A stretch of 63,430 nucleotides of DNA, counting the filler. It is 8 parts of 8 records of this genome, joined end to end, with 100 filler letters (N's around TTAATTAATTAA, not from the genome) between each part and the next. Parts side by side here need not be neighbours in the genome. Positions count along the whole stretch, not along the records: positions 38,384 to 47,301 come from DRR723986_40433; 7 more parts are not named here. The stretch is one strand, 5' to 3'. Of this stretch, positions 6,229-52,510 are shown piece by piece. Below the pieces are notes generated by a model that was not told the DNA's origin, made no database searches, and was given only the letters and a program-made list of their open reading frames with translations. The first letter of the stretch is position 1; every line of letters starts with the position of its first letter. A program made the position numbers and the translations under genes.

Positions 6229-6328
6229 NNNNNNNNNNNNNNNNNNNNNNNNNNNNNNNNNNNNNNNNNNNNTTAATTAATTAANNNNNNNNNNNNNNNN
6301 NNNNNNNNNNNNNNNNNNNNNNNNNNNN
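6229..6328. other. Artificial contig spacer (also at 16521-16620, 25777-25876, 33078-33177, 38284-38383, 47302-47401, 52411-52510)
   Basis: N44-TTAATTAATTAA-N44 with stops in all frames. Composition and apparent taxon change across most spacers. Confidence 0.98.
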
Positions 6329-7314: not shown

Positions 7315-7533
7315 ATCACTGCAGGTTTTACGCCATACACATCCAACTTAAACTTTGTGTGGATTGCGGTAGCAGTTGGTGGACTTCAATTTATAAGTTC
7401 AATGATAAAATTCTGCCCGGTTTATTTCATTCTTAATAAACTAATGCCAAATACTGATCCTATTCAAAATCGTAATTAAAACTTAAGTCACAAATAGATT
7501 TACTTGTGCTGCATCTTTGAATAATAGGGGGGC

Positions 7534-7566
7534 AAAAAAAGCCTGATAGAAATATCAGGCTTTTTT
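7534..7566. terminator. Intrinsic terminator, bidirectional
   Basis: A7-GCCTGAT-agaaat-ATCAGGC-T6. Confidence 0.75.
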
Positions 7567-7658
7567 GTTTTTTGTCTTTCTTATGTTCTTAACTCATAAC
7601 ATCAATATGATGTAAAATATAAATTAAGTAACTTTAAGTAGTTAAATCTAATCCCATA

Positions 7659-9095
7659 ATGAAAAAAGTTCCGAAGCAAATTAAGTTACTTTTTATTTTT
7701 CTGATTGCGTTATCCTTAATTAAACTTAACGCTCAAACACAAATTGGTAATGATATTGATGGCCTCACATCGGGTGATTCTTTTGGACGAAATACAAGTA
7801 TTTCTGCCGATGGTAGTATTGTAGCTATAGCTGGTAATATTGGTGAAGCAGGACCTGGTGGTTCGCCACGCGTTTTCAAAAATATTAACGGCGCTTAGAC
7901 ATTGTATGCTACTGATAGTAGTGGTGGGAATTTTGGAGGAATTGGCTGTTATAGTATAAGTATGTCATCAGATGGAAATACCTTGGCAATCGGTACTTTA
8001 TTCAATGCTATACGAGTTTTTAGTTATGATAGTAACACAGATATTTGGATTCAAAAAGGTGCTGATATTGTTAATACCTCTACTGTAAATCGATATGGTT
8101 ATAGTACTCAGTTATCTTCGGACGGAAATATCATTGCGATTGGTATACCAGACTCTCCTTTTGTGCCAGAAGCAGGAATTACACAAATATATCAATATAA
8201 TACAGGTGCTTGGAGTCAGATAGCGAACAATATAGTTGGGTTATCACCAGCAGAAAATTCTGGAAGGAGTGTGGATTTATCGTCAGATGGAAATACTGTT
8301 GCCATATTGAGTGATAATACACTTCGCGTTTATCAGAATGTTTCAGGAAACTGGACATTGTATGGAAATGAGATACCAGCTACAGGAAGTCAAACTACTA
8401 ATAGTGCAATTAGCTTATCTTCTAACGGGACTATACTAGCATTAGGTGAACCCGATTACACGGGTAATTTTATTCAACAAGATCGTGTTAGAATTTTTAA
8501 ATATAGAGCAGGATTGTGGGAACAGATTGGTGATGACATTATAGGTGAAGTCACTCAATATAGAACCGGTTGGAGTGTGAGCCTGTCTGAGGGAGGTGAT
8601 TTTATTGCTATCGGAGAACCTGGTAGTACAAGTAGCACCACAGATACTGGGCGCATGCGCTTTTTTAAAAATCAAAATGATTCTTGGATTCAGGTTGGGA
8701 ATTCAATATTTGGAGAAGCCAGTGAAGATTACTCAGGTAGAAGTGTTGCTCTATCTTTTGATGCAGGAACAGTAATTATAGGTGCACCAAAGAATGATGA
8801 CGGAGCTGATAATGCAGGACATGCTAGAGTTTATAACCTTAACGACCTATTATCTGTAATTGATATTACTAAACCTAAAGTTGGAATTTTTCCTAATCCA
8901 TCAAGTAATGAATTCACAGTACAACTTACAGGTGACATTAGATTAAATAAAGTGACTATTTTTAATAGTGACGGACAATTAATGAAGTCTACAACATTAC
9001 CTTCTGTTAGTGTTTCAGATTTATCAGCTGACGTTTATATTCTAAAAATATACACTAGCAATGGATTGGATACCGAAAAAATTATTGTTAAATAG
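7659..9095 (+). pseudogene. FG-GAP/beta-propeller protein with T9SS type A CTD, interrupted by in-frame TAG at 7896-7898
   Basis: Signal peptide, repeated GxSVxLSxDG and W.QIG units, C-terminal IFPNPS…KIIVK. The two ORF-track pieces are in one frame, separated by a single TAG where Trp is expected. Confidence 0.8.
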
Positions 9096-16520: not shown

Positions 16521-16620
16521 NNNNNNNNNNNNNNNNNNNNNNNNNNNNNNNNNNNNNNNNNNNNTTAATTAATTAANNNNNNNNNNNNNNNNNNNNNNNN
16601 NNNNNNNNNNNNNNNNNNNN

Positions 16621-25775: not shown

Positions 25776-25876
25776 GNNNNNNNNNNNNNNNNNNNNNNNN
25801 NNNNNNNNNNNNNNNNNNNNTTAATTAATTAANNNNNNNNNNNNNNNNNNNNNNNNNNNNNNNNNNNNNNNNNNNN

Positions 25877-33048: not shown

Positions 33049-33345
33049 TGATTGGTTTTTGGTTTTTGGTTTTTGGTNNNNNNNNNNNNNNNNNNNNNNN
33101 NNNNNNNNNNNNNNNNNNNNNTTAATTAATTAANNNNNNNNNNNNNNNNNNNNNNNNNNNNNNNNNNNNNNNNNNNNCATGGCGACTTTTCGCGATTGGG
33201 ATGATGGCCAAAAGGTATCGCGAAATCATAAAAATACAAGCGTTTCAATGTTTTGTGGTCAGTATCGACGTGTTCGCAGCGCCGCGAAAATCTGCGCACG
33301 CGCTGCGTTCCCTCAATGGGCGTCGTAGCCTCTTCCAGACGCGAA

Positions 33346-38283: not shown

Positions 38284-38383
38284 NNNNNNNNNNNNNNNNN
38301 NNNNNNNNNNNNNNNNNNNNNNNNNNNTTAATTAATTAANNNNNNNNNNNNNNNNNNNNNNNNNNNNNNNNNNNNNNNNNNNN

Positions 38384-38433
<50 letters not shown>

Positions 38434-38441
38434 ACAAAAAG

Positions 38442-38477
38442 AAAGGCAGATCAGCTACTTAGCGATCTGCCTTTTTT
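38442..38477 (+). terminator. Intrinsic terminator after the tRNA
   Basis: AAAGGCAGATC…GATCTGCC-T6. Confidence 0.75.
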
Positions 38478-38582
38478 CATTCTATACCTTCAGAAACTTC
38501 CTGTGACATATCTGTGACACATATGTGCCAATTCCACGCCGGCACAAATTCTACCGATCCAAATTCCGACCTTAAGGCTGCG

Positions 38583-38653
38583 GGCTCTACCCCATTATCG
38601 GGGGATGGCACTCATCCAACCGGCTCTACCCAATAAACGGGAGACGGCACTCA
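38583..38653. repeat. Two imperfect 32-bp direct repeats
   Basis: GGCTCTACCCCATTATCGGGGGATGGCACTCA (38583) and GGCTCTACCCAATAAACGGGAGACGGCACTCA (38622); 27 of 32 positions identical. Confidence 0.8.
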
Positions 38654-38969
38654 GCTCCCGCCTGCCTATAAGACATCACAACCACAATCGGTCTAGATCA
38701 TATCGCATCAGCTTGGTTTATATGGTGGATTCAAGCGATCGACGCAAAATCAGTCTAATGAATGCCGGTGCCCCCCATTTATGATGAAGAGCCAAATGTG
38801 GTCCACGTACTTCTCATGCTGAATACAGACACTGAAAAGTAACCGTCACGCCTGCCGAGCGGATAAGTCTCTCACGCCAGATCCAGCTAGAATAACTACC
38901 GTTGGAAAATTTACAGCCAACTATGCCTCCCGCTGGGAGGGGCTGACACGCCCTGATTTAAACAAAGGC

Positions 38970-39479
38970 CTATCCGTAAGGCTCGGAGCGATTCGCTTGT
39001 CTAGATAATGTGAAAAACGCCCCATTGCACCATGAAACACTGAGACTCTCTTCCACAGGGCGGGTCCCCACAACCACAAGGATGAGCCCGGGGCCGGGAT
39101 CGATAGAAGTCCTAAAAATGTCCTGAATAGCTTCGCGGTCTTCTGATGAAGGCTTGGCGATTGGTTCTGGATGAGTATGCCAATCCCCTAATAAATAAAA
39201 ACCCTTTTCATAGTGTTCATCGATTTCCGTTTGTTCTTTATTCGGGTCGGCCTTATAGGATGTGCGGGTGCGGAGATCCGTTCGCCTGGGGCCGGTGATT
39301 GCGCCTACGCGTTTGTGTCCGCTCTGAGTGTATTCCCAAAATAGCTGTCCACCGGCTTCCCTATGCCATCTCCGCTTTTGCTGATATTTTTCAAAATGCG
39401 CAAGAATAGAAGGGGTAAATTCAATTTCCCCGAAACTTGGAATATGGTACCAGAGTGAGCTTCTATTCAATGTGGTCAT
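38970..39479 (-). CDS. Prokaryotic JAB/JAMM (Mov34) metalloprotease, Cap3-like
   Basis: EAGGQL catalytic Glu and GDWHTHPE….PSSED (HxH-x7-S-x2-D). Confidence 0.92.
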   Translation of the reverse strand: MTTLNRSSLWYHIPSFGEIEFTPSILAHFEKYQQKRRWHREAGGQLFWEYTQSGHKRVGAITGPRRTDLRTRTSYKADPNKEQTEIDEHYEKGFYLLGDWHTHPEPIAKPSSEDREAIQDIFRTSIDPGPGLILVVVGTRPVEESLSVSWCNGAFFTLSRQANRSEPYG

Positions 39480-41224
39480 TGGCAGTTATGGCATTCACCA
39501 CACGGATCAACAACGGAAGTATATTCAAATGGGCCCTCGTATCCATCTGGGCGGTGACCCTTATGATAATCGGTCCATTCTCCGCCCAATTCATGCAGAT
39601 CCTCACTAGAGCAAGCGTAAACCTTATGGTGCGGAGCGGATACTTTGCCAGTCAGGATATCAATTGTCGCTCGCGTAACAAGAAGTTCAACCTGTCCTGC
39701 TGCTAATGGTCCGTAGGGCTGAAACTCAGTTCCGCAAGCTGGTTCTGCCCGCCGCCGATCATCACCTCGGAAGTCAGTGTCGGGGCACTTTAAAAATCCG
39801 TCCAAGTCGAAGAAACAGGACAGCGCGGAAACGCCGGCTTTCAAAGCAAGGGCGTGGCCTGTCGTGCCCTGCGTACCCAGCCATCCATACACGATTGGAG
39901 TATCTGCGAATGCTCCAGACTGATGTCGGGAGTCCAAGGCAAGATCCTGATCTGCCTCTCCCATGCAACTTACCACGATATCCGCTTCTTCGAATATCTC
40001 GGGGTAGTTTCGCAATACGTCCTGCCACCCAGTTGGGTAGCCCGTGAACCTCCCATGCGGGTATCGCTCCGACAATAACAAAGCCAAAGACTTCGCTTTA
40101 TTGGCATTAATGCTCGTCATGCCCAATGCATGGCGCCCCACGTTTGCAGGATCCAGCGCCTCCGGATCTACAATACTGATTCGTCCAAGCCCTGCCTGTG
40201 CTAGACGGGATGCGATTTGCGAGCCTAAAGAACCAGCCCCCAAAAGGAGCGCGTGGCTTGCAGACAAGGTCGCATGACCTTCGTTATCCTGGTCCCGCCC
40301 ATGAATCCATCCGCTGTCTGCCCGATTTACTCGAACAGGCGAGTAGCCGCTCACGGAACCCCATATTTGCTTTAGTTGTGCTGCCTTTCTAATGCTTCTG
40401 AAACCGCGCTTTGGTGCCGCGTGCATTTTGGTACCGAATAGTGCAACGCCATTGTCCGATTTTGAGGCGAGGATCACCAAAGTTGATTCGAACGGAGAGA
40501 GTGTGCCTAAAAATCCGTTGAGCGCTGGAGCTTGGTTTAATAGCTCGCAGACAAATTGTCGAGTTGTTCGGGGTAAAGGTATTGCGGGTGGCTCGTCAAT
40601 AAATGCGAAAACTGCCTGAATGCTAGGGCCGCTTTCTTCGACACCTGAATTTACGAGCCAATCTTCAATCTGTTCGTCACTTTCGCCAACGAGATAGTGA
40701 CCGTTATATAGCTTGGCGGATATTTTTCTGGCCTTCGTGTTTCTTGGGTCAATAATGCTAACTGCAGATAGCTTCTTGTCCTGACGGCCCCAGTAAGTTA
40801 GAAATTCCCGTTCCGACTCCGATTTTATAAATTCCTCTGATTGGCAGTTCGTGATCAAATCTGTGGCTTGTGATAAGCGCTGGGAAATACTATGTTCAAG
40901 ATTTTCACAGGGGCGCCAACCCTCATCGGGAAGGCACAGGAAGTTGTGTTCTTCGATGTGAGGCCACTGTAAATACCTGCTGTCCCCATGGTAGGCGATC
41001 TGGATCCTAGAAAAAGGGAAGGAATCGTTTAGGAGTACGAAAAGCTGCGTATCGGAATCGGGCAGCCGAATTTGCCATCCAGCCACCACTTTTTTCCATG
41101 CATATTTTTCGACGTCCTCAAACGTTAGAGCTCTAACATCGCACACATGGGTATGCAGCCAGCTGCTAAGCTGGCGCTGGTACCGAGCGAATTCACTCTC
41201 ATAGCCGGGTCGTGAAGCGGGCAT
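39476..41224 (-). CDS. E2-E1 (ThiF) fusion, Cap2-like
   Basis: E2-like FPF…WPHIEEHNFLCL. E1 GAGSLGS, DPEALDPANVGRH, EPACGTEFQPYG catalytic-Cys motif, C-terminal CGECHNC. Confidence 0.9.
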   Translation of the reverse strand: MPASRPGYESEFARYQRQLSSWLHTHVCDVRALTFEDVEKYAWKKVVAGWQIRLPDSDTQLFVLLNDSFPFSRIQIAYHGDSRYLQWPHIEEHNFLCLPDEGWRPCENLEHSISQRLSQATDLITNCQSEEFIKSESEREFLTYWGRQDKKLSAVSIIDPRNTKARKISAKLYNGHYLVGESDEQIEDWLVNSGVEESGPSIQAVFAFIDEPPAIPLPRTTRQFVCELLNQAPALNGFLGTLSPFESTLVILASKSDNGVALFGTKMHAAPKRGFRSIRKAAQLKQIWGSVSGYSPVRVNRADSGWIHGRDQDNEGHATLSASHALLLGAGSLGSQIASRLAQAGLGRISIVDPEALDPANVGRHALGMTSINANKAKSLALLLSERYPHGRFTGYPTGWQDVLRNYPEIFEEADIVVSCMGEADQDLALDSRHQSGAFADTPIVYGWLGTQGTTGHALALKAGVSALSCFFDLDGFLKCPDTDFRGDDRRRAEPACGTEFQPYGPLAAGQVELLVTRATIDILTGKVSAPHHKVYACSSEDLHELGGEWTDYHKGHRPDGYEGPFEYTSVVDPCGECHNCQ

Positions 41225-42419
41225 ATGACTTTTCTGTGGTACCTTTTTGGGTTTTGGGCGGAACGGCAGGAATTGGCCCCTTTTTGCGTGGTGATTCAGG
41301 CCCGCGCTCGGTAATTTCGAGTTTCAAGGGCTCGTCCTTGGAATCCGTCATCGTGCCAAGGAACTTGCCATTAGCATTTTCGGCTATAGCTTCGTAGAGT
41401 CGTTTAGCTAGGTCTTTCCCGCTCTTTTCTGCAGGCTCCTCGCTGCTAGCGACGATATATGCTGCAGTTTCTGCTTGCGACAGAGCCGAGTATGCTTCTT
41501 TATCGATATCGCATTCCTCGCCTTTTCCCTGTTTCCCGGCTTGGTCGTTATAGTTGTCGTAAGACAGGGCGCCCAGAGAGCAGTGATGCGGTGTCTGGAG
41601 AATATGGTAAGCGAGATTTTGAGTGGTTTCCTCATTGCGGTGCCAGATGCGTTTCCAGATGTTAATCTCGGCATCGCCGCCAGTAAGGAACCGTGTGGCT
41701 GTCTTCTTATCTAGGGTGCTGTCACTCGGTGAAAAACTGAACTGCATGACAATACTAGAATTATTCTTGCCGGGAAGCGCATCTGCCTCTTCCTCTGTGA
41801 CGACCTTTGGTGAAAGCAAGAGCGCTGAGAATGAAGGGTCCGCCTGCCCGCATATCGTATTTGTGGATTCACCGACCTTCTGAATGAGATGTTCGATGCC
41901 TTCAGTTTTGTCGTGGTGAACGTCTTCGCCCATGATTTTGATCAAGTTCCCTAGCTCATTGGCGGATGCCTCACCGTCCTTGGCCAGTTTTACACGCCTC
42001 TTCGCCTCTTTTTTCCAGGCTTCTGCATTCGGAACGAGATTGCCGTCTACCCTATCGGCGCGGCGAAAGGTAAGGGGAGCGGACCACATTTCGTGTATTA
42101 AGATTTTTTCGAGTTCCTCGCCCTCGGGCTTTTTCCATGTGGATGGGGCGCCAAGATGGAAGTGGTTCTGCAGGCCGCCACAATGGTCCTGGTCTGGATG
42201 TGTCAGGACAAATGCATCAACGTACAGCCTATTATCGTTGTCGGCATCGCGCTCGAGCCGGTCCTTAAGCATTTTGGCGACGTCCGGGTAGTCGTGCTTA
42301 TTCTGATCATCGGCGTCGTTCCTGATGTTGATGTCAATCAGAATCGTCCTACCAGTGGCGAGGCGGATAAGGGTCATATCCCCGTTACCTACTGGGAAGA
42401 ACTCTATGCTGGCTGTCAT
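41199..42419 (-). CDS. Metallo-beta-lactamase-fold hydrolase (ComEC-like)
   Basis: FFPVGNGD, THPDQDHCGG, NNSSIV, GDAE, PHHCS. Low-complexity Pro/Lys C-terminal tail. Confidence 0.88.
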   Translation of the reverse strand: MTASIEFFPVGNGDMTLIRLATGRTILIDINIRNDADDQNKHDYPDVAKMLKDRLERDADNDNRLYVDAFVLTHPDQDHCGGLQNHFHLGAPSTWKKPEGEELEKILIHEMWSAPLTFRRADRVDGNLVPNAEAWKKEAKRRVKLAKDGEASANELGNLIKIMGEDVHHDKTEGIEHLIQKVGESTNTICGQADPSFSALLLSPKVVTEEEADALPGKNNSSIVMQFSFSPSDSTLDKKTATRFLTGGDAEINIWKRIWHRNEETTQNLAYHILQTPHHCSLGALSYDNYNDQAGKQGKGEECDIDKEAYSALSQAETAAYIVASSEEPAEKSGKDLAKRLYEAIAENANGKFLGTMTDSKDEPLKLEITERGPESPRKKGPIPAVPPKTQKGTTEKSYARFTTRL

Positions 42420-43102
42420 TGGTCACCCCCAATGTGTTGAGTGTTCGAGAAGTTTGCGATTGCTCCTGCGACCATCCTGTTTCCCGCCACATTCGCAGCG
42501 ATCATAGCTAGGCCGAGGTAGGCTAGAAGTACTAGATAGGCTGGCCCGAAGATTAGGGGCTCCCCGAGAATAAGCCTGCTTCCAAGGTCGGTGAGGCTTG
42601 AGAGAACGATGACCAGCGCGACACCTGCAGATGTGTCCCGGTGAAGCAGGTACTGCCGATGACTATTTAAAATAGCCGGGGCATTGCTCACTGGGCGGTA
42701 GATATCACGATACCAGCGCGCGTTTCGCTCCTTGGGGGATAAGGACCTATCTCTTAGGGCCTCGACCTCCGGAGGTAAATTTGCAAGATCGACCCTGGCA
42801 TCCCTCGCCATTATTTGATCACAGCGACTTCCCGGCAGGGGGTTGCTCCAGCGAAGATGGACAAGTCGTTCCTTCCACTGGGGGGCAATCACGCTGGCAA
42901 GTAGCAAGAGGACCGCCTTCAGGCATAGCAGCGGGCCGATACCTATTACGGCGAGCTGGCTAAAAGCTATCCATGGCTGGCTTTCAGCAACTTGCAGGAG
43001 CCGCTCTCCTTGGGCAATTGCCAATGAAACGTAAATCGGTACTACGGCGACCAGCAGATATGTCATCAACGCCTTTTCGTTTTCTTTCTTTAAGTCGACC
43101 AC
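42416..43102 (-). CDS. Uncharacterised membrane protein, about 4 TM helices
   Basis: Two N-terminal and two C-terminal hydrophobic segments around a soluble loop (RWSNPLPGSR…NARWY…HRQYLLHRD). GAGG RBS before GTG. ATGA overlap with the MBL gene. Confidence 0.78.
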   Translation of the reverse strand: MVDLKKENEKALMTYLLVAVVPIYVSLAIAQGERLLQVAESQPWIAFSQLAVIGIGPLLCLKAVLLLLASVIAPQWKERLVHLRWSNPLPGSRCDQIMARDARVDLANLPPEVEALRDRSLSPKERNARWYRDIYRPVSNAPAILNSHRQYLLHRDTSAGVALVIVLSSLTDLGSRLILGEPLIFGPAYLVLLAYLGLAMIAANVAGNRMVAGAIANFSNTQHIGGDQ

Positions 43103-43408
43103 AATCGGATTAGCCTCTTGCTTTAAAGTACATCAATATTCTCGCAGCGGACGTCTGTTTGGTACCAGAGGCGGAGGCGGATCGAAGTAGCAGCGATGCT
43201 GGCTTCGAGCTGTTACCTGCCATATTGATCCAGGCCAGCCGTCCGCTTATTACCATTGCCCCCCATTCTGAGCACGAAAGGTAATCGGGTTTAAGGGGAC
43301 TACGAACAAAGCCAAAACCCTTAACTTCTCGAGGTCGCAAGTTCAGACGCGATGACTCACATATTCACAAGCTTTCTATAACTAATACCGCGTTACCCAG
43401 ATGAATCG

Positions 43409-43612
43409 CTAATCTTCTACATACTCCAATAAATCTCCGACTCCACATCCAAATAATTTGCATAGCCTCTCTAGCGCATCCAAGTCGATACGCTGGCTGG
43501 TTTCTTTATACAGAAGGGTCACAGTATTTCGGTTCAAACCCGTTTCTCTGGCTACGTCGACAATTTTCATCTTACGTTCGCCCATGAGCCTGGCTAGGTG
43601 GCACTTAATCAC
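43409..43612 (-). CDS. Cro/CI-type XRE HTH regulator
   Basis: HLARLMGERKMKIVDVARETGLNRNTV…LERLC.LF.C.VGDLLEY. GGAG RBS before GTG. Confidence 0.88.
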   Translation of the reverse strand: MIKCHLARLMGERKMKIVDVARETGLNRNTVTLLYKETSQRIDLDALERLCKLFGCGVGDLLEYVED

Positions 43613-43763
43613 CAATGCTTCTCCAGATATAAAAAATTCACCCAGAATCGCAAAAAATACTTGCGGGTGGCATTTTGCTGTGTAAAATGTCACTCAGGAT
43701 GGCATTTTGATATTAAGAATGTCTTTTCGCCACTTAGAATACCTGACGTCGAGGCTAATTGCG

Positions 43764-44006
43764 ATGACTGATTCATATACATATCTCACGACGGAAGAGC
43801 TCGCCAGCCGTATCAAATATGACTGCCGGACAATCCGCCAGCGCCTAAAAGATAGCGTTCTTCTTGAGGGCAAGCATTACATCAAACCCTTCGGCGGCCG
43901 AAAGATTCTGTTTCTTTGGGAGGCCGTTGAACAGGAGATGCTTAGGACCGCTAATGATAGGGGCGCGCTCATTCCCATGGCCAGCGGAGGCTACTGCAAT
44001 GGGTAA
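43764..44006 (+). CDS. Excisionase-like HTH protein
   Basis: YLTTEELASRIKY..RTIR…HYIKPFGGRKILF. Overlaps the integrase start. Confidence 0.75.
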   Translation: MTDSYTYLTTEELASRIKYDCRTIRQRLKDSVLLEGKHYIKPFGGRKILFLWEAVEQEMLRTANDRGALIPMASGGYCNG

Positions 44007-45255
44007 AGTGAGAGCGCGAAAGGAGACCGGGAAGCTCTACATGGACTTCTTCTATTTGGGAGTACGCTGCCGTGAACAGACAGCGTTGACGGATACCTCT
44101 CAGAATAGAGCTCGTGTAGAAAAGCTTCTTCAACGTATTGAGGCAAAAATACTGTTAGGAGAGTTCGAGTACTCGGAGTTCTTTCCAGAAAGCCCAAATG
44201 CCAGGAAGTTTGCCGCCCAAGAGGCCGGCTTATCAACCAGTACAGGCGTAGCATCAACCCCTACCTTTAGGGAATTCACGGATCTGTGGTTCGCTGAAAT
44301 GAAAGTCCAGTGGCGGGCATCCCATACCCGCAATGTTGAGTCGATCCTGGAAAGCTCCCTTAAGCCCGCCTTCAAGAATAAACGCGTCGGCGAGATCACC
44401 AAAGCGGAAATCCTGAAATTTCGCGGCCAACTCGCCGCCAAGAAAGGCCGAGGCACCAATACGACCTTGTCACCCAAAACCGTCAATAACCATATGCTGA
44501 TACTGAGTTTGATTCTGGACGAGGCGGCTGAACGGTTCGGTTTTGAGTCCCCCTACAAGAATATCAAACCGCTCAGGCTCAAAAAGCAGCATATCGAACC
44601 CTTGTCGCTGCAGGAAGTGGAGCTGTTTATCGAGCGTGTTCGCCCGGATTTCAAGCATTACTACACCGTTCGGTTCTACACGGGACTGCGCACAGGCGAA
44701 ATCCACGGGCTGAAGTGGAAGCATGTGGATTTTGAGCGCAAAGAGATACTAGTGCGCGAGACCCTGATCAGGGGCGAAACCGAGTATACGAAAACAGACG
44801 GATCCCAGCGGGAAATCCCGATGATGGGGCCGGTGTTTGAGGCGCTCAAAGCCCAGTATCAAGCGACCGGAAAGCTTTCCGGGTATGTGTTCTGTAATAA
44901 AGAAGGCCAACCTCTGGATAACTGCAACGTCACGAATCGCGTGTGGTATCCGATGTTGCGCTACTTAGGGCTAAACAAACGGCGCCCTTACCAGTCCCGG
45001 CATACCGCTGCCACGTTGTTGCTGGCTTCCGGGGAGAACGCCGAATGGGTAGCTCGTGTATTGGGCCATTCATCAACGGAGATGCTCTTCAAAGTCTACT
45101 CCCGCTATATCCCCAACCTTACTCGCCAGGACGGATCTGCATTTGAGCGGCTATTGGCATCCCGATTTCCTACCGCGCTATCAGCAACTGGGCAGAATGG
45201 GGTCAACCACAACGAAAACCCCACGGAGGCTACAAACGATGAGCAAAGATCCTAA
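43999..45255 (+). CDS. Tyrosine recombinase/integrase with N-terminal arm-binding domain
   Basis: LYMDFFY.GVRCREQT arm domain, TGLRTGE, YQSRHTAA, LGH…Y catalytic set. Confidence 0.95.
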   Translation: MGKVRARKETGKLYMDFFYLGVRCREQTALTDTSQNRARVEKLLQRIEAKILLGEFEYSEFFPESPNARKFAAQEAGLSTSTGVASTPTFREFTDLWFAEMKVQWRASHTRNVESILESSLKPAFKNKRVGEITKAEILKFRGQLAAKKGRGTNTTLSPKTVNNHMLILSLILDEAAERFGFESPYKNIKPLRLKKQHIEPLSLQEVELFIERVRPDFKHYYTVRFYTGLRTGEIHGLKWKHVDFERKEILVRETLIRGETEYTKTDGSQREIPMMGPVFEALKAQYQATGKLSGYVFCNKEGQPLDNCNVTNRVWYPMLRYLGLNKRRPYQSRHTAATLLLASGENAEWVARVLGHSSTEMLFKVYSRYIPNLTRQDGSAFERLLASRFPTALSATGQNGVNHNENPTEATNDEQRS

Positions 45256-45718
45256 AGACGCATTGGAGGCACTTGCCGGTGGCGACATACCCATCTTCAC
45301 GGTTGGCGATATGCGGCTGTTGAACCTAAAAATCCCCAAGCAGCTGGCGGATGCTGCAGATGACGACGTCATGGTCGCCCCCCGGGCTGTGGCTGAGAAC
45401 ATGTTCTCTAAAGCCCTCGTGCGCTGGCGCATACCCGAAGAGGAAGCGGCTGATTTTACATTGACAGCCGGCGCCATCGAAATCATGCGTGTACTGCAGA
45501 TTCACCATTATCTTCGCCTGGTCTTTCCCAACACAAAGCCCGACTCCTTTGTCTGGCTTCACACGCAAAACAGTGCATTCGAGGACAAGACCCCGTGGTC
45601 CGTCATTCGCGACGGGGGTATCAACACCGTCTTTCAATACCTCGACGACTTCGTGTTTGGTGGTTGGTCGCCTTATATCAACCCCATGCCGACGCCCCGG
45701 GAGGCCGATGATGAGTAA
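45239..45718 (+). CDS. Protein with MbcA/ParS/Xre antitoxin-like C-terminal domain
   Basis: VF…..WLHTQNSAFEDKTPWSVI..GG…V.QYL pattern. GGAGG RBS. Confidence 0.65.
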   Translation: MSKDPKDALEALAGGDIPIFTVGDMRLLNLKIPKQLADAADDDVMVAPRAVAENMFSKALVRWRIPEEEAADFTLTAGAIEIMRVLQIHHYLRLVFPNTKPDSFVWLHTQNSAFEDKTPWSVIRDGGINTVFQYLDDFVFGGWSPYINPMPTPREADDE

Positions 45719-46232
45719 AGAAAAACCGAACACCGCGCATAAATCTGGCACGGCGCGGCACTTCAATCCCGAGAGCCGCCGCATCTACATCGATATGGAC
45801 GACACCTTGTGTGATTTCGTCGGCCACTACCACAAGATTAAGACTCAATTCCCGGAGTTGGCCTACCCGCAAAGCCTGCCGGGCTTCTTTCTGGATTTAG
45901 AGCCATTACCGGGGGCCATAGAAGCCTTTGATAACCTCAGTCGGGCACCCAACACTGAGGTCTTCATATTGACCGCCCCCTCCGTCCTGAACCCCCACAG
46001 CTATACGGAGAAGCGCTTGTGGATAGAAGCCCACCTCGGGCTTGAAGCTGCCTACCGACTAATTCTTAGCCCGAACAAGGGCTTACTTCAGGGCGATTTC
46101 CTGATTGATGACTTGAGCGAGGGCAAAGGCCAGGAGTTCTTTGCCGGAGAGCTCATCCACTTTGGCTCAGCTCGCTATCCAGACTGGACCAGCGTGCTGT
46201 TTCATCCTGATTTTGGCCTTTTCTCAGAGTAA
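45708..46232 (+). CDS. HAD-family 5'(3')-deoxyribonucleotidase (NT5C-like)
   Basis: IYIDMDDTLCDF, FF.DLEPLPGA, ILTAP, EKRLW, K.LL.GDFLIDD. Confidence 0.9.
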   Translation: MMSKEKPNTAHKSGTARHFNPESRRIYIDMDDTLCDFVGHYHKIKTQFPELAYPQSLPGFFLDLEPLPGAIEAFDNLSRAPNTEVFILTAPSVLNPHSYTEKRLWIEAHLGLEAAYRLILSPNKGLLQGDFLIDDLSEGKGQEFFAGELIHFGSARYPDWTSVLFHPDFGLFSE

Positions 46233-46249
46233 ACCGCGAGGTACATAAC

Positions 46250-46834
46250 ATGGTACATACCACATCACCCACCATTGAAGTCATTGCAGTACTCTTGGCG
46301 CGACACTATCGAGGTGCCTTTAAAGACGGTTTGGTCATGCGCATCGGTGAAGGCTGGGAGGTCAATAATGCGGAAGCTATTGCCTCCTGGATTCAGGCTC
46401 GCTACGAATGCCAACGACTTTATATTGACCTGGGAGAGGAACAAGACCCCTTCAGCCGCGACGTCACGATTGCTATAGGGCTCGAGCAAGAAAAACTGAC
46501 CGAGGTGCTACGGAGCCAATCAGAGCAGGTCTGGGAGCGCCTGAGCTGCCCATCCCCAAAGGGCCATTCATTTCTCCCCCAGCGGGCACTCACTGCCGAC
46601 GAGTGCCGAAAGATGGCGCACGCCCTTCTCGAGTTGCTGGCCACCTGGCAAGCTCCTCAATCCTTGGAAGCTGATTGTGCAAGGGGCCTGCCTGGGGAGG
46701 GCGGGGGTGTAAGAAAACTTACAGACTGGATCGAACAACAAGGCGCTCTCTATACACACCACCCGTCCGAGCTTACAAACCCACTAGCGCATGAGCTGGT
46801 TCGGATTTTGTATCCCGACTGCGTACCCGATTGA
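46250..46834 (+). CDS. Hypothetical protein
   Basis: 194-aa ATG ORF with GAGG RBS, co-oriented in the island operon. Confidence 0.6.
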   Translation: MVHTTSPTIEVIAVLLARHYRGAFKDGLVMRIGEGWEVNNAEAIASWIQARYECQRLYIDLGEEQDPFSRDVTIAIGLEQEKLTEVLRSQSEQVWERLSCPSPKGHSFLPQRALTADECRKMAHALLELLATWQAPQSLEADCARGLPGEGGGVRKLTDWIEQQGALYTHHPSELTNPLAHELVRILYPDCVPD

Positions 46835-46904
46835 CGCGCAGGCTACGGACAACACCATAGGGCAAGGACATATAACCGACAACTAGTAACGAAAGGATTA
46901 CTTC

Positions 46905-47141
46905 ATGAAAACACATACCCAATTACAGCTAAACCTGAACTTTATCAGCGACATTATCGATGAGTTTCTGGGGTCAGTAGGTGCCACACCGACCGGAATA
47001 GCTCTTGTTCCGATATTCGGTGAAGGATACGAATCAGATAACTGGGAAGCGCTATACTATTTTCTGGACCAGCAGGATGGCCGGGTTACTGCAAATCCTA
47101 GTCGCCTGTTTAAACTTATAAACGACCGCATTAACAGGTGA
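46905..47141 (+). CDS. Small hypothetical protein
   Basis: 78-aa ATG ORF with AAGGA RBS. Confidence 0.5.
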   Translation: MKTHTQLQLNLNFISDIIDEFLGSVGATPTGIALVPIFGEGYESDNWEALYYFLDQQDGRVTANPSRLFKLINDRINR

Positions 47142-47555
47142 CACAACTTACTGCAAAGGATAGGTACATGAAAAAAATAATGAATCCGACCGCCAAATAC
47201 AGATAATACGACTTGGCGAGCTAAAGATGCTTGGTATCGAACCACCTGATGCTGTGCGTGATGCGCCTGACGAGGATATGCTCACCATGCCTCGACCTGC
47301 CNNNNNNNNNNNNNNNNNNNNNNNNNNNNNNNNNNNNNNNNNNNNTTAATTAATTAANNNNNNNNNNNNNNNNNNNNNNNNNNNNNNNNNNNNNNNNNNN
47401 NGAGGGACCTTCCGCCGGCGGCGACCCAAAAAGCGTCCAAGGCATTTGCCTTGCCTAATGTTTGCCATGTTCCTGCCCGATTTGAAAGTTCAAATTTGGA
47501 AACAATTTTACCGGATCTGGGAAACGATCAACGCTTTTGGGTCAATCCCTCGGGT

Positions 47556-52410: not shown

Positions 52411-52510
52411 NNNNNNNNNNNNNNNNNNNNNNNNNNNNNNNNNNNNNNNNNNNNTTAATTAATTAANNNNNNNNNNNNNNNNNNNNNNNNNNNNNNNNNN
52501 NNNNNNNNNN

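Follow-up and report, generated by a model that had tools for sequence, protein, structure and literature searches.

The 6A-MBL system, whose primary paper is reportedly that of van den Berg et al. 2024, pairs an enzyme of the metallo-β-lactamase (MBL) fold with E2, E1 and JAB activities. Here we describe an operon of this type in a 63,430-nucleotide stretch of DNA (the window; all coordinates are positions along the whole stretch), in which the MBL-fold hydrolase carries a flexible C-terminal tail, a candidate conjugation tag, that is followed in this lineage by six extra residues. The system corresponds to type 6a among the operons described by Iyer, Burroughs and Aravind in 2006 (PMC1779556) and to the NCBIfam models NF058524 and NF058523. 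PMC13276650 and 10.1101/2025.09.30.679545 name it as a phage-defence system of Pseudomonas aeruginosa, a system from this species being reported to protect against phage. The conjugation-tag reading of the tail has already been stated for "MBL pathways" (PMC11601596, in the portion available). Thus, as both the system and the idea of conjugation through the tail are in the literature, our results chiefly confirm, on new DNA, a design that was already known; noteworthy are the split Cap2/Cap3 arrangement and the membrane partner, with the loss of a stop codon as a small new twist on the known system.

Type II CBASS (cyclic-oligonucleotide-based antiphage signaling system) combines a CD-NTase, the cyclase, with Cap2 and Cap3 (Ledvina et al., 10.1101/2022.03.31.486616; Jenson et al., PMC10097602). 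According to the first source, the disordered C-terminus of the cyclase is AMP-linked in the E1 site of Cap2, conjugation by Cap2 requires the adenylation site and both cysteines, and the Enterobacter cloacae cyclase tail used in crystallography ends in ...TGRFA. The operon in the window resembles this system in its gene order (effector-like membrane protein, enzyme, Cap2, Cap3), in its E2-E1 protein, which belongs to the CBASS Cap2 subfamily PDLC00836, within which its neighbors serve cyclases, and in its type of tail (...GGGR[YH][AG] or ...[KR]xYA). None of five operon proteins matched the PADLOC Cyclase model and a CD-NTase domain was not found in six neighboring proteins; with an MBL hydrolase in the position of the cyclase, a cyclic-nucleotide signal is not implied. 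The Thoeris systems with Cap2/Cap3 (10.64898/2025.12.03.692087) are similar in featuring a portable module of a tail plus Cap2/3, whereas their enzyme has a different fold and a C-terminal extension is not described in the available text. In the Bil and Bub pathways, JAB peptidases mature precursors of ubiquitin-like proteins (pre-Ubls), cleaving the pre-protein and exposing a reactive C-terminus before E1 adenylation, according to the available text of 10.1101/2023.09.26.559546 and PMC11601596. This is the role proposed for the JAB of the window, although the substrates of those pathways are β-grasp Ubls with conserved precursors, while the substrate here would be a 400-residue enzyme.

On the contig occupying positions 38384–47301, calling of open reading frames (ORFs) yielded four genes on the minus strand (38970–43102) that overlap head to tail by 4, 26 and 4 nt and are translationally coupled. 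The first codes for an all-helical membrane protein of 228 aa (42416–43102), which overlaps the start of the MBL gene by 4 nt. It is followed by the MBL-fold hydrolase (406 aa; whole ORF 41199–42419), a Cap2-like E2-E1 fusion (582 aa; 39476–41224) and a Cap3-like JAB/JAMM peptidase (169 aa; 38970–39479), the last with a 4-nt overlap with the E2-E1 gene.

The hydrolase scores 324.8 bits over residues 7–373 against NF058524 ("6A-MBL_enzyme"), passing the equivalog cut-off of 220; this profile ends at residue 373, leaving the tail outside its coverage. An AlphaFold2 model (mean predicted local distance difference test score, pLDDT, 93.7; predicted template-modeling score 0.90) is confident to residue 375. 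For the folded domain (residues ~1–372; 41303–42419, minus strand), the closest fold in the PDB is the MBL domain of ComEC (9ic4; E 1.4e-11, TM-score 0.70 on the target), followed by phosphorylcholine esterase and the RNase J, CPSF73 and Integrator nucleases. Based on these neighbors of the model, our best guess is that the protein would act as a phosphodiesterase or nuclease. A PDB sequence search with the hydrolase recovered nothing significant, the top match again being the ComEC MBL domain (E 0.054). Across 125 aligned MBL sequences D29, H74, D78, H79, E138, R142, D249 and H278 are invariant; these include five residues of the metal site (H74, D78, H79, D249 and H278), whose D76 and H279 are conserved in at least 90% of the homologs.

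Past residue 375 the model is devoid of secondary structure, and the pLDDT is just 57–69 for residues 381–406, which points to a flexible tail. The initial annotation had proposed such a tail after the folded domain, with a ...TEKSYA|RFTTRL terminus and the E2-E1 start codon placed inside TATGCC. The flexibility is borne out by the model, and the reading of the ORF and of the junction reproduces the rest exactly. The ORF ends in ...GPESPRKKGPIPAVPPKTQKGTTEKSYARFTTRL (i.e., ...TEKSYA-RFTTRL), with the tail proper, GPESPRKKGPIPAVPPKTQKGTTEKSYA, spanning residues 373–400 (41220–41302, minus strand) and ending in Tyr399-Ala400, the end of the proposed conjugation tag. These two residues are encoded by TAT GCC (41225–41220), and the ATG of the E2-E1 gene (41224–41222) draws its AT from the end of TAT and its G from the start of GCC. 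The coding strand then reads TAT GCC CGC TTC ACG ACC CGG CTA TGA, so that the 26-nt overlap (41199–41224) yields in the MBL frame six read-through codons, RFTTRL, and a TGA stop (41199–41219). Thus, the Gly/Ala-ended disordered tail that is a hallmark of Cap2/Cap3 substrates is present, but six residues separate its conserved Ala from the true terminus.

A database search with the hydrolase recovered 2208 homologs at E<=0.001, and a length of 340–470 aa was taken as full length. In a close set of the best 120 of these (119 full length), 110 of 119 end exactly in [YFHW][GA], a further eight have the motif followed by 1–6 residues and a single sequence is free of it. In a diverse set of 150 representatives of 50%-identity clusters (495 matches at E<=0.001; 86 full length), 54 of 86 end exactly in the motif and 23 have it followed by 1–8 residues, while the remaining nine lack it or have another ending such as ...PRAG. 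The background frequency of [YFHW][GA] at non-tail positions is 1.0% (316 of 31,761), and the motif at the C-terminus is thus far above chance. Hence, the aromatic-[GA] ending with variable extensions that had been anticipated is indeed retained across homologs, in the form of an aromatic residue or His before [GA] and often with a short extension. Within 30 clade-1 MBL sequences, K389, K392, Y399 and A400 are invariant or nearly so. Taken with the features of its partners laid out below, the disordered tail ending at Tyr399-Ala400 is very probably a Cap2-type conjugation tag.

The E2-E1 protein combines the Pfam domains Prok-E2_B and ThiF, matches the PADLOC model for CBASS E1-E2 proteins (PDLC00836, 9.8e-117) and retrieves Cap2 entries (7tsq, 7to3) as its top PDB sequence matches. 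Its catalytic apparatus is conserved in 59 of 59 sequences: H89 and C97 of the E2 domain, G329, G331, G334, D353, R364 and K376 of the adenylation site and C497, the E1 cysteine. The JAB protein likewise matches Pfam Prok-JAB and the PADLOC JAB model (2.1e-46), and its JAMM residues (E41, H101, H103, S111 and D114) are conserved without exception in 19 sequences. These residues bear on an alternative under which the tail is a docking or autoinhibitory peptide that sits on the E1 or the JAB non-covalently, with the hydrolase never being ligated. It draws on the literature examined, where, in the text available, MBL adducts go unreported and Cap2 targets are stated to be unknown. However, it leaves the invariant catalytic cysteines unexplained, and a disordered tail with a terminal small residue is the documented signature of Cap2 E1 substrates (10.1101/2022.03.31.486616, available text); we consider docking of this kind improbable.

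The close likeness to 6A-MBL extends from the equivalog-level match of the enzyme to the placement of its gene, directly upstream of and co-oriented with the E2, E1 and JAB activities, and to the disordered tail, in which an aromatic residue or His precedes the small residue at the end. There are also differences. In the window the E2-E1 and JAB are two genes, neither product reaching the cut-off of the fused cap2_3 model (NF058523), and they only weakly resemble the fused protein (E 1e-5 to 1e-8). Further, the terminus is Tyr-Ala rather than His-Gly or Tyr-Gly, and the operon adds a gene for a four-transmembrane protein ahead of the MBL gene as well as the six-residue read-through. A set of 91 fetched loci, metagenomic ones included, provided 20 unique MBLs of type A and 41 of type B, with 19 more unique MBLs sitting at contig ends where the class is undecidable. 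In type A, the E2-E1 (~590 aa) and JAB (~170 aa) are split and the MBL terminus is Tyr-Ala; in type B, a classical fused E2-E1-JAB protein (~750–800 aa) accompanies an MBL with a mostly His-Gly terminus. The operon of the window is of type A, and the same arrangement recurs in 19 other unique split-type loci. The fused 6A proteins match the E2-E1 of the window at E 1e-5 to 1e-8.

A search with the E2-E1 of the window against two sets of 401 genomes each, one drawn from a single phylum and the other from a single class, showed that its six closest relatives outside MBL loci (E 1e-45 to 8e-61) are all CBASS Cap2 proteins; two of them that were scanned (L103 and L105) also match PDLC00836. Each of the six is encoded immediately downstream of a CD-NTase; three of these cyclases match the PADLOC Cyclase model (e-139 to e-147), and the remaining three are 41–52% identical to those. 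The cyclases end in ...VNKQGGGRYG, ...SSAGGGRHA, ...VEKREGGRYA followed by GSALP, ...VEKQGGGRYA, ...VNKQGNNEYA and ...VDKRGGGRYA. These tails match those of MBL clade 2 (e.g., ...MVEKKGGGRYA), even though similarity between the two enzyme folds is undetectable. The tail therefore follows the Cap2 subfamily and not the fold of the enzyme, as predicted for a recognition and attachment tag. The one verified cyclase paired with a more distant Cap2 (L107) ends in ...RGLA, with no aromatic residue.

A DNA-level constraint might in principle account for the Tyr-Ala ending, which would then be kept only because TATGCC holds the downstream start codon or serves translational coupling. Indeed, TAT GCC plus a stop, with the ATG embedded, is the normal arrangement, being found in 19 of the 21 other split-type junctions. 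Yet the loci L032 and L036 use TAC GCC, which has no ATG, and their MBLs still end in YA; the HG, YG and FG codons of the fused clade are unable to hold an ATG; conservation extends upstream, beyond the overlap (KG..E..YA and GGGRYA); and the tail is common to cyclases. On the strength of the TAC GCC loci and the HG/YG/FG termini we reject the start codon as the sole reason for the YA terminus, and a purely DNA-level explanation is scarcely credible.

The origin of RFTTRL became apparent from 22 type A junctions, among them the locus L023, which is identical to the window. At 21 of the 22, a stop (18 TGA, two TAA, one TAG) follows right after the Ala codon, whereas the lineage of the window has CGC in the stop position, with the next in-frame TGA six codons on. 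RFTTRL amounts to a +1-frame reading of the E2-E1 N-terminus; in the E2-E1 frame itself, Pro2 stays Pro at the site of the loss, and residue 3 is Ala in place of the usual Asp. Judged from these junctions, RFTTRL is a lineage-specific loss of a stop codon and a recent accident in one lineage, and we reject the notion of a conserved pro-peptide given the stop after Ala at 21 of 22 split-type junctions. Nor is it a sequencing error, because 64 contigs record the exact MBL of the window and RFTTRL recurs in two point variants, F87Y and N350S: the allele is real and established. The initial annotation had spoken of a masked conjugation tag. Its tag stands, upheld by the conserved terminus, the catalytic residues and the cyclase tails, while the idea of an evolved mask founders on the stop loss, the extension being found in just one of 20 unique split-type MBLs with the stop retained at 21 of 22 junctions.

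The same junctions could be taken to mean that the tag is now dead: the loss would have gone uncorrected, RFTTRL would stay in place, the tail would not be adenylated and the hydrolase would work, or fail, without conjugation. The rarity of the extension and the retention of the stop elsewhere agree with this, as does the fact that RFTTRL is a mere frame of the E2-E1 N-terminus, with signs of selection absent. Against it, the four genes are intact with their catalytic residues in place, and the allele, besides its spread over 64 contigs, is older than the two point variants. Extensions are also frequent in the fused clade, where 18 of 41 unique MBLs have an internal [YH]G followed by 1–6 varied residues (e.g., AS, TR, LR, DDD, RADGSR and CRNKDS) with the internal motif conserved. 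Among the extended versions is an MBL that a cultured Sagittula strain carries on a conjugative plasmid and in which ...AHAHG is followed by CGSDLA; one cyclase, the above-mentioned ...VEKREGGRYA version, similarly runs past the motif. Conservation of a motif that is no longer terminal is sensible only if it becomes terminal again. Finally, Cap3 cleaves peptide-linked C-terminal fusions, cutting a cyclase-GFP fusion exactly past the final residue of the cyclase (available text of 10.1101/2022.03.31.486616). Together these points render a dead tag unlikely, if well short of negligible.

The cleavage of the GFP fusion by Cap3, the maturation of pre-Ubls in the Bil and Bub pathways and the extensions of the fused clade favor trimming, and by analogy with them we lean slightly toward the view that the JAB removes RFTTRL in the lineage of the window. 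The chain that we envisage is as follows. The MBL hydrolase would play the part of ubiquitin in a 6A-MBL-type operon, with its disordered tail of ~30 residues serving the neighboring Cap2-like E2-E1 as a tag for recognition and attachment. Following the loss of the stop after Ala400, six codons are read into the E2-E1 gene, and RFTTRL caps the tag. The Cap3-like JAB would cleave after Ala400, and would later also reverse conjugates; the E1 domain would adenylate the freed carboxylate, and the hydrolase would be handed on as a thioester, first to C497 and next to C97. Its ligation to one or more targets would prime or position what is predicted to be a phosphodiesterase- or nuclease-like enzyme.

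To this chain as a whole, from the hydrolase as a ubiquitin-like substrate through stop loss, JAB cut and E1 activation to ligation, we assign a probability of about 0.6, as several points weigh against it. The extension is unique within its own split-type clade (one of 20 unique MBLs), so that it need not reflect selection for a pro-form, and a neutral or slightly deleterious allele is conceivable; the extension may merely be tolerated, or may block the tag. The JAB reaches only 52.2 bits against the NCBIfam Cap3 equivalog (cut-off 200), and the E2-E1 only 60.5 bits against the 6A-MBL cap2_3 model NF058523 (cut-off 320), on which the JAB in turn scores 25.9. The homolog counts are not phylogenetically independent, the sharing of tails is based on six cyclase loci, and all the chemistry of the chain, cleavage by the JAB included, is drawn from analogy with Cap2 and Cap3, as are the existence of a target and any consequence for activity.

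A more far-reaching possibility, which we offer tentatively and would not bet on, is that in this lineage the JAB has turned from a pure antagonist of conjugation into an obligatory maturase acting on a natural pro-enzyme, and that the tail is a transferable module, sufficient by itself to determine which enzyme a given Cap2 takes as a substrate. If true, the hydrolase would be made as a pro-enzyme that is not primed until trimmed, and the near-identical ...EK[KRQ]GGGRYA shared by MBL and CD-NTase enzymes, which are unrelated but use a single Cap2 subfamily, would represent such a module. In any case, the natural allele capped by six residues provides a ready test of whether Cap3-type peptidases mature substrates besides deconjugating them, and the presence of the same tail on MBL hydrolases and CBASS cyclases argues that a short tail, and not the fold, carries substrate specificity.

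The membrane protein of the operon has hydrophobic segments at residues 9–33, 43–77 and 160–208, and its AlphaFold2 model (pLDDT 89.4) is all-helical with approximately four hydrophobic helices. No family for it was found in Pfam, PADLOC or NCBIfam, a protein atlas search returned unnamed clusters only and a PDB fold search with the model gave nothing at E<=0.001. Homologs accompany 11 of 20 type A loci, where they lie upstream of the MBL gene, and seven of 41 type B loci, mostly downstream of it. The protein and its homologs (in the loci L001, L016, L024–L033, L054, L057, L071, L075, L078, L095 and L102) share an N-terminal LKxQN motif and a conserved loop, WKERLxHxRWxxPLPGxRA. Distant look-alikes are seen in the loci L034 and L045 of the GGGRYA subclade. 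The order membrane protein, enzyme, Cap2 and Cap3 mirrors that of type II CBASS, and by this analogy an effector or an anchor might be predicted as a reasonable guess.

Several of the collected loci have peculiarities of their own. In the split-type locus L088, a second MBL-like gene (387 aa; 7505–8668, plus strand) lies directly downstream of the JAB gene, and its product ends in ...RVENYE, without the [YH][GA] tail. In four metagenomic loci, the E2-E1 or fused E2-E1-JAB is broken into two to three overlapping ORFs (L095, 5181–6931; L054, 5174–7455; L055, 1396–3724; L093, 1579–3857), which may reflect frameshifts, pseudogenes or assembly errors. In two GGGRYA-type loci, a divergently oriented gene for a protein of ~300 aa lies upstream of the MBL gene (L034, 2946–3848, minus strand; L088, 3008–3913, minus strand), which by eye resembles the HTH-WYL regulators of CBASS neighborhoods.

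In the window, a Cro/C1-type helix-turn-helix protein (43409–43693, minus strand; Pfam HTH_26, 1.7e-21) is encoded upstream of the operon on the same strand. It is possibly a local regulator; we rejected it as a part of the system, its homolog being found among the 91 loci only in the window-identical L023. Beyond it, between 43864 and 46232 on the plus strand, are genes for a tyrosine integrase that contains an Arm DNA-binding domain, an NT5C-type 5'-nucleotidase and a protein whose C-terminal domain is that of Xre/MbcA/ParS antitoxins. A tRNA gene, sought as an integration site, was not found on the operon contig. The window is interrupted by seven spacers, each built as N44-TTAATTAATTAA-N44 (6229–6328, 16521–16620, 25777–25876, 33078–33177, 38284–38383, 47302–47401 and 52411–52510), and the GC content shifts at several of them, for instance from 0.58 to 0.37 near 6.2 kb and from 0.63 to 0.49 near 38.3 kb. 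The spacers and these jumps indicate that the window strings together separate contigs, which may come from a mixed bin, and that genes facing each other across a spacer should not be taken for neighbors.

Finally, 254 plasmid records carry the MBL family, with Klebsiella (125), Clostridium (31) and Escherichia (25) prominent among them and 129 predicted to be conjugative, which fits a mobile defense module. The plasmid copies (e.g., the locus L113, NZ_CP126151.1, 64263–73339) are annotated merely as "metallohydrolase" and "ThiF family adenylyltransferase".

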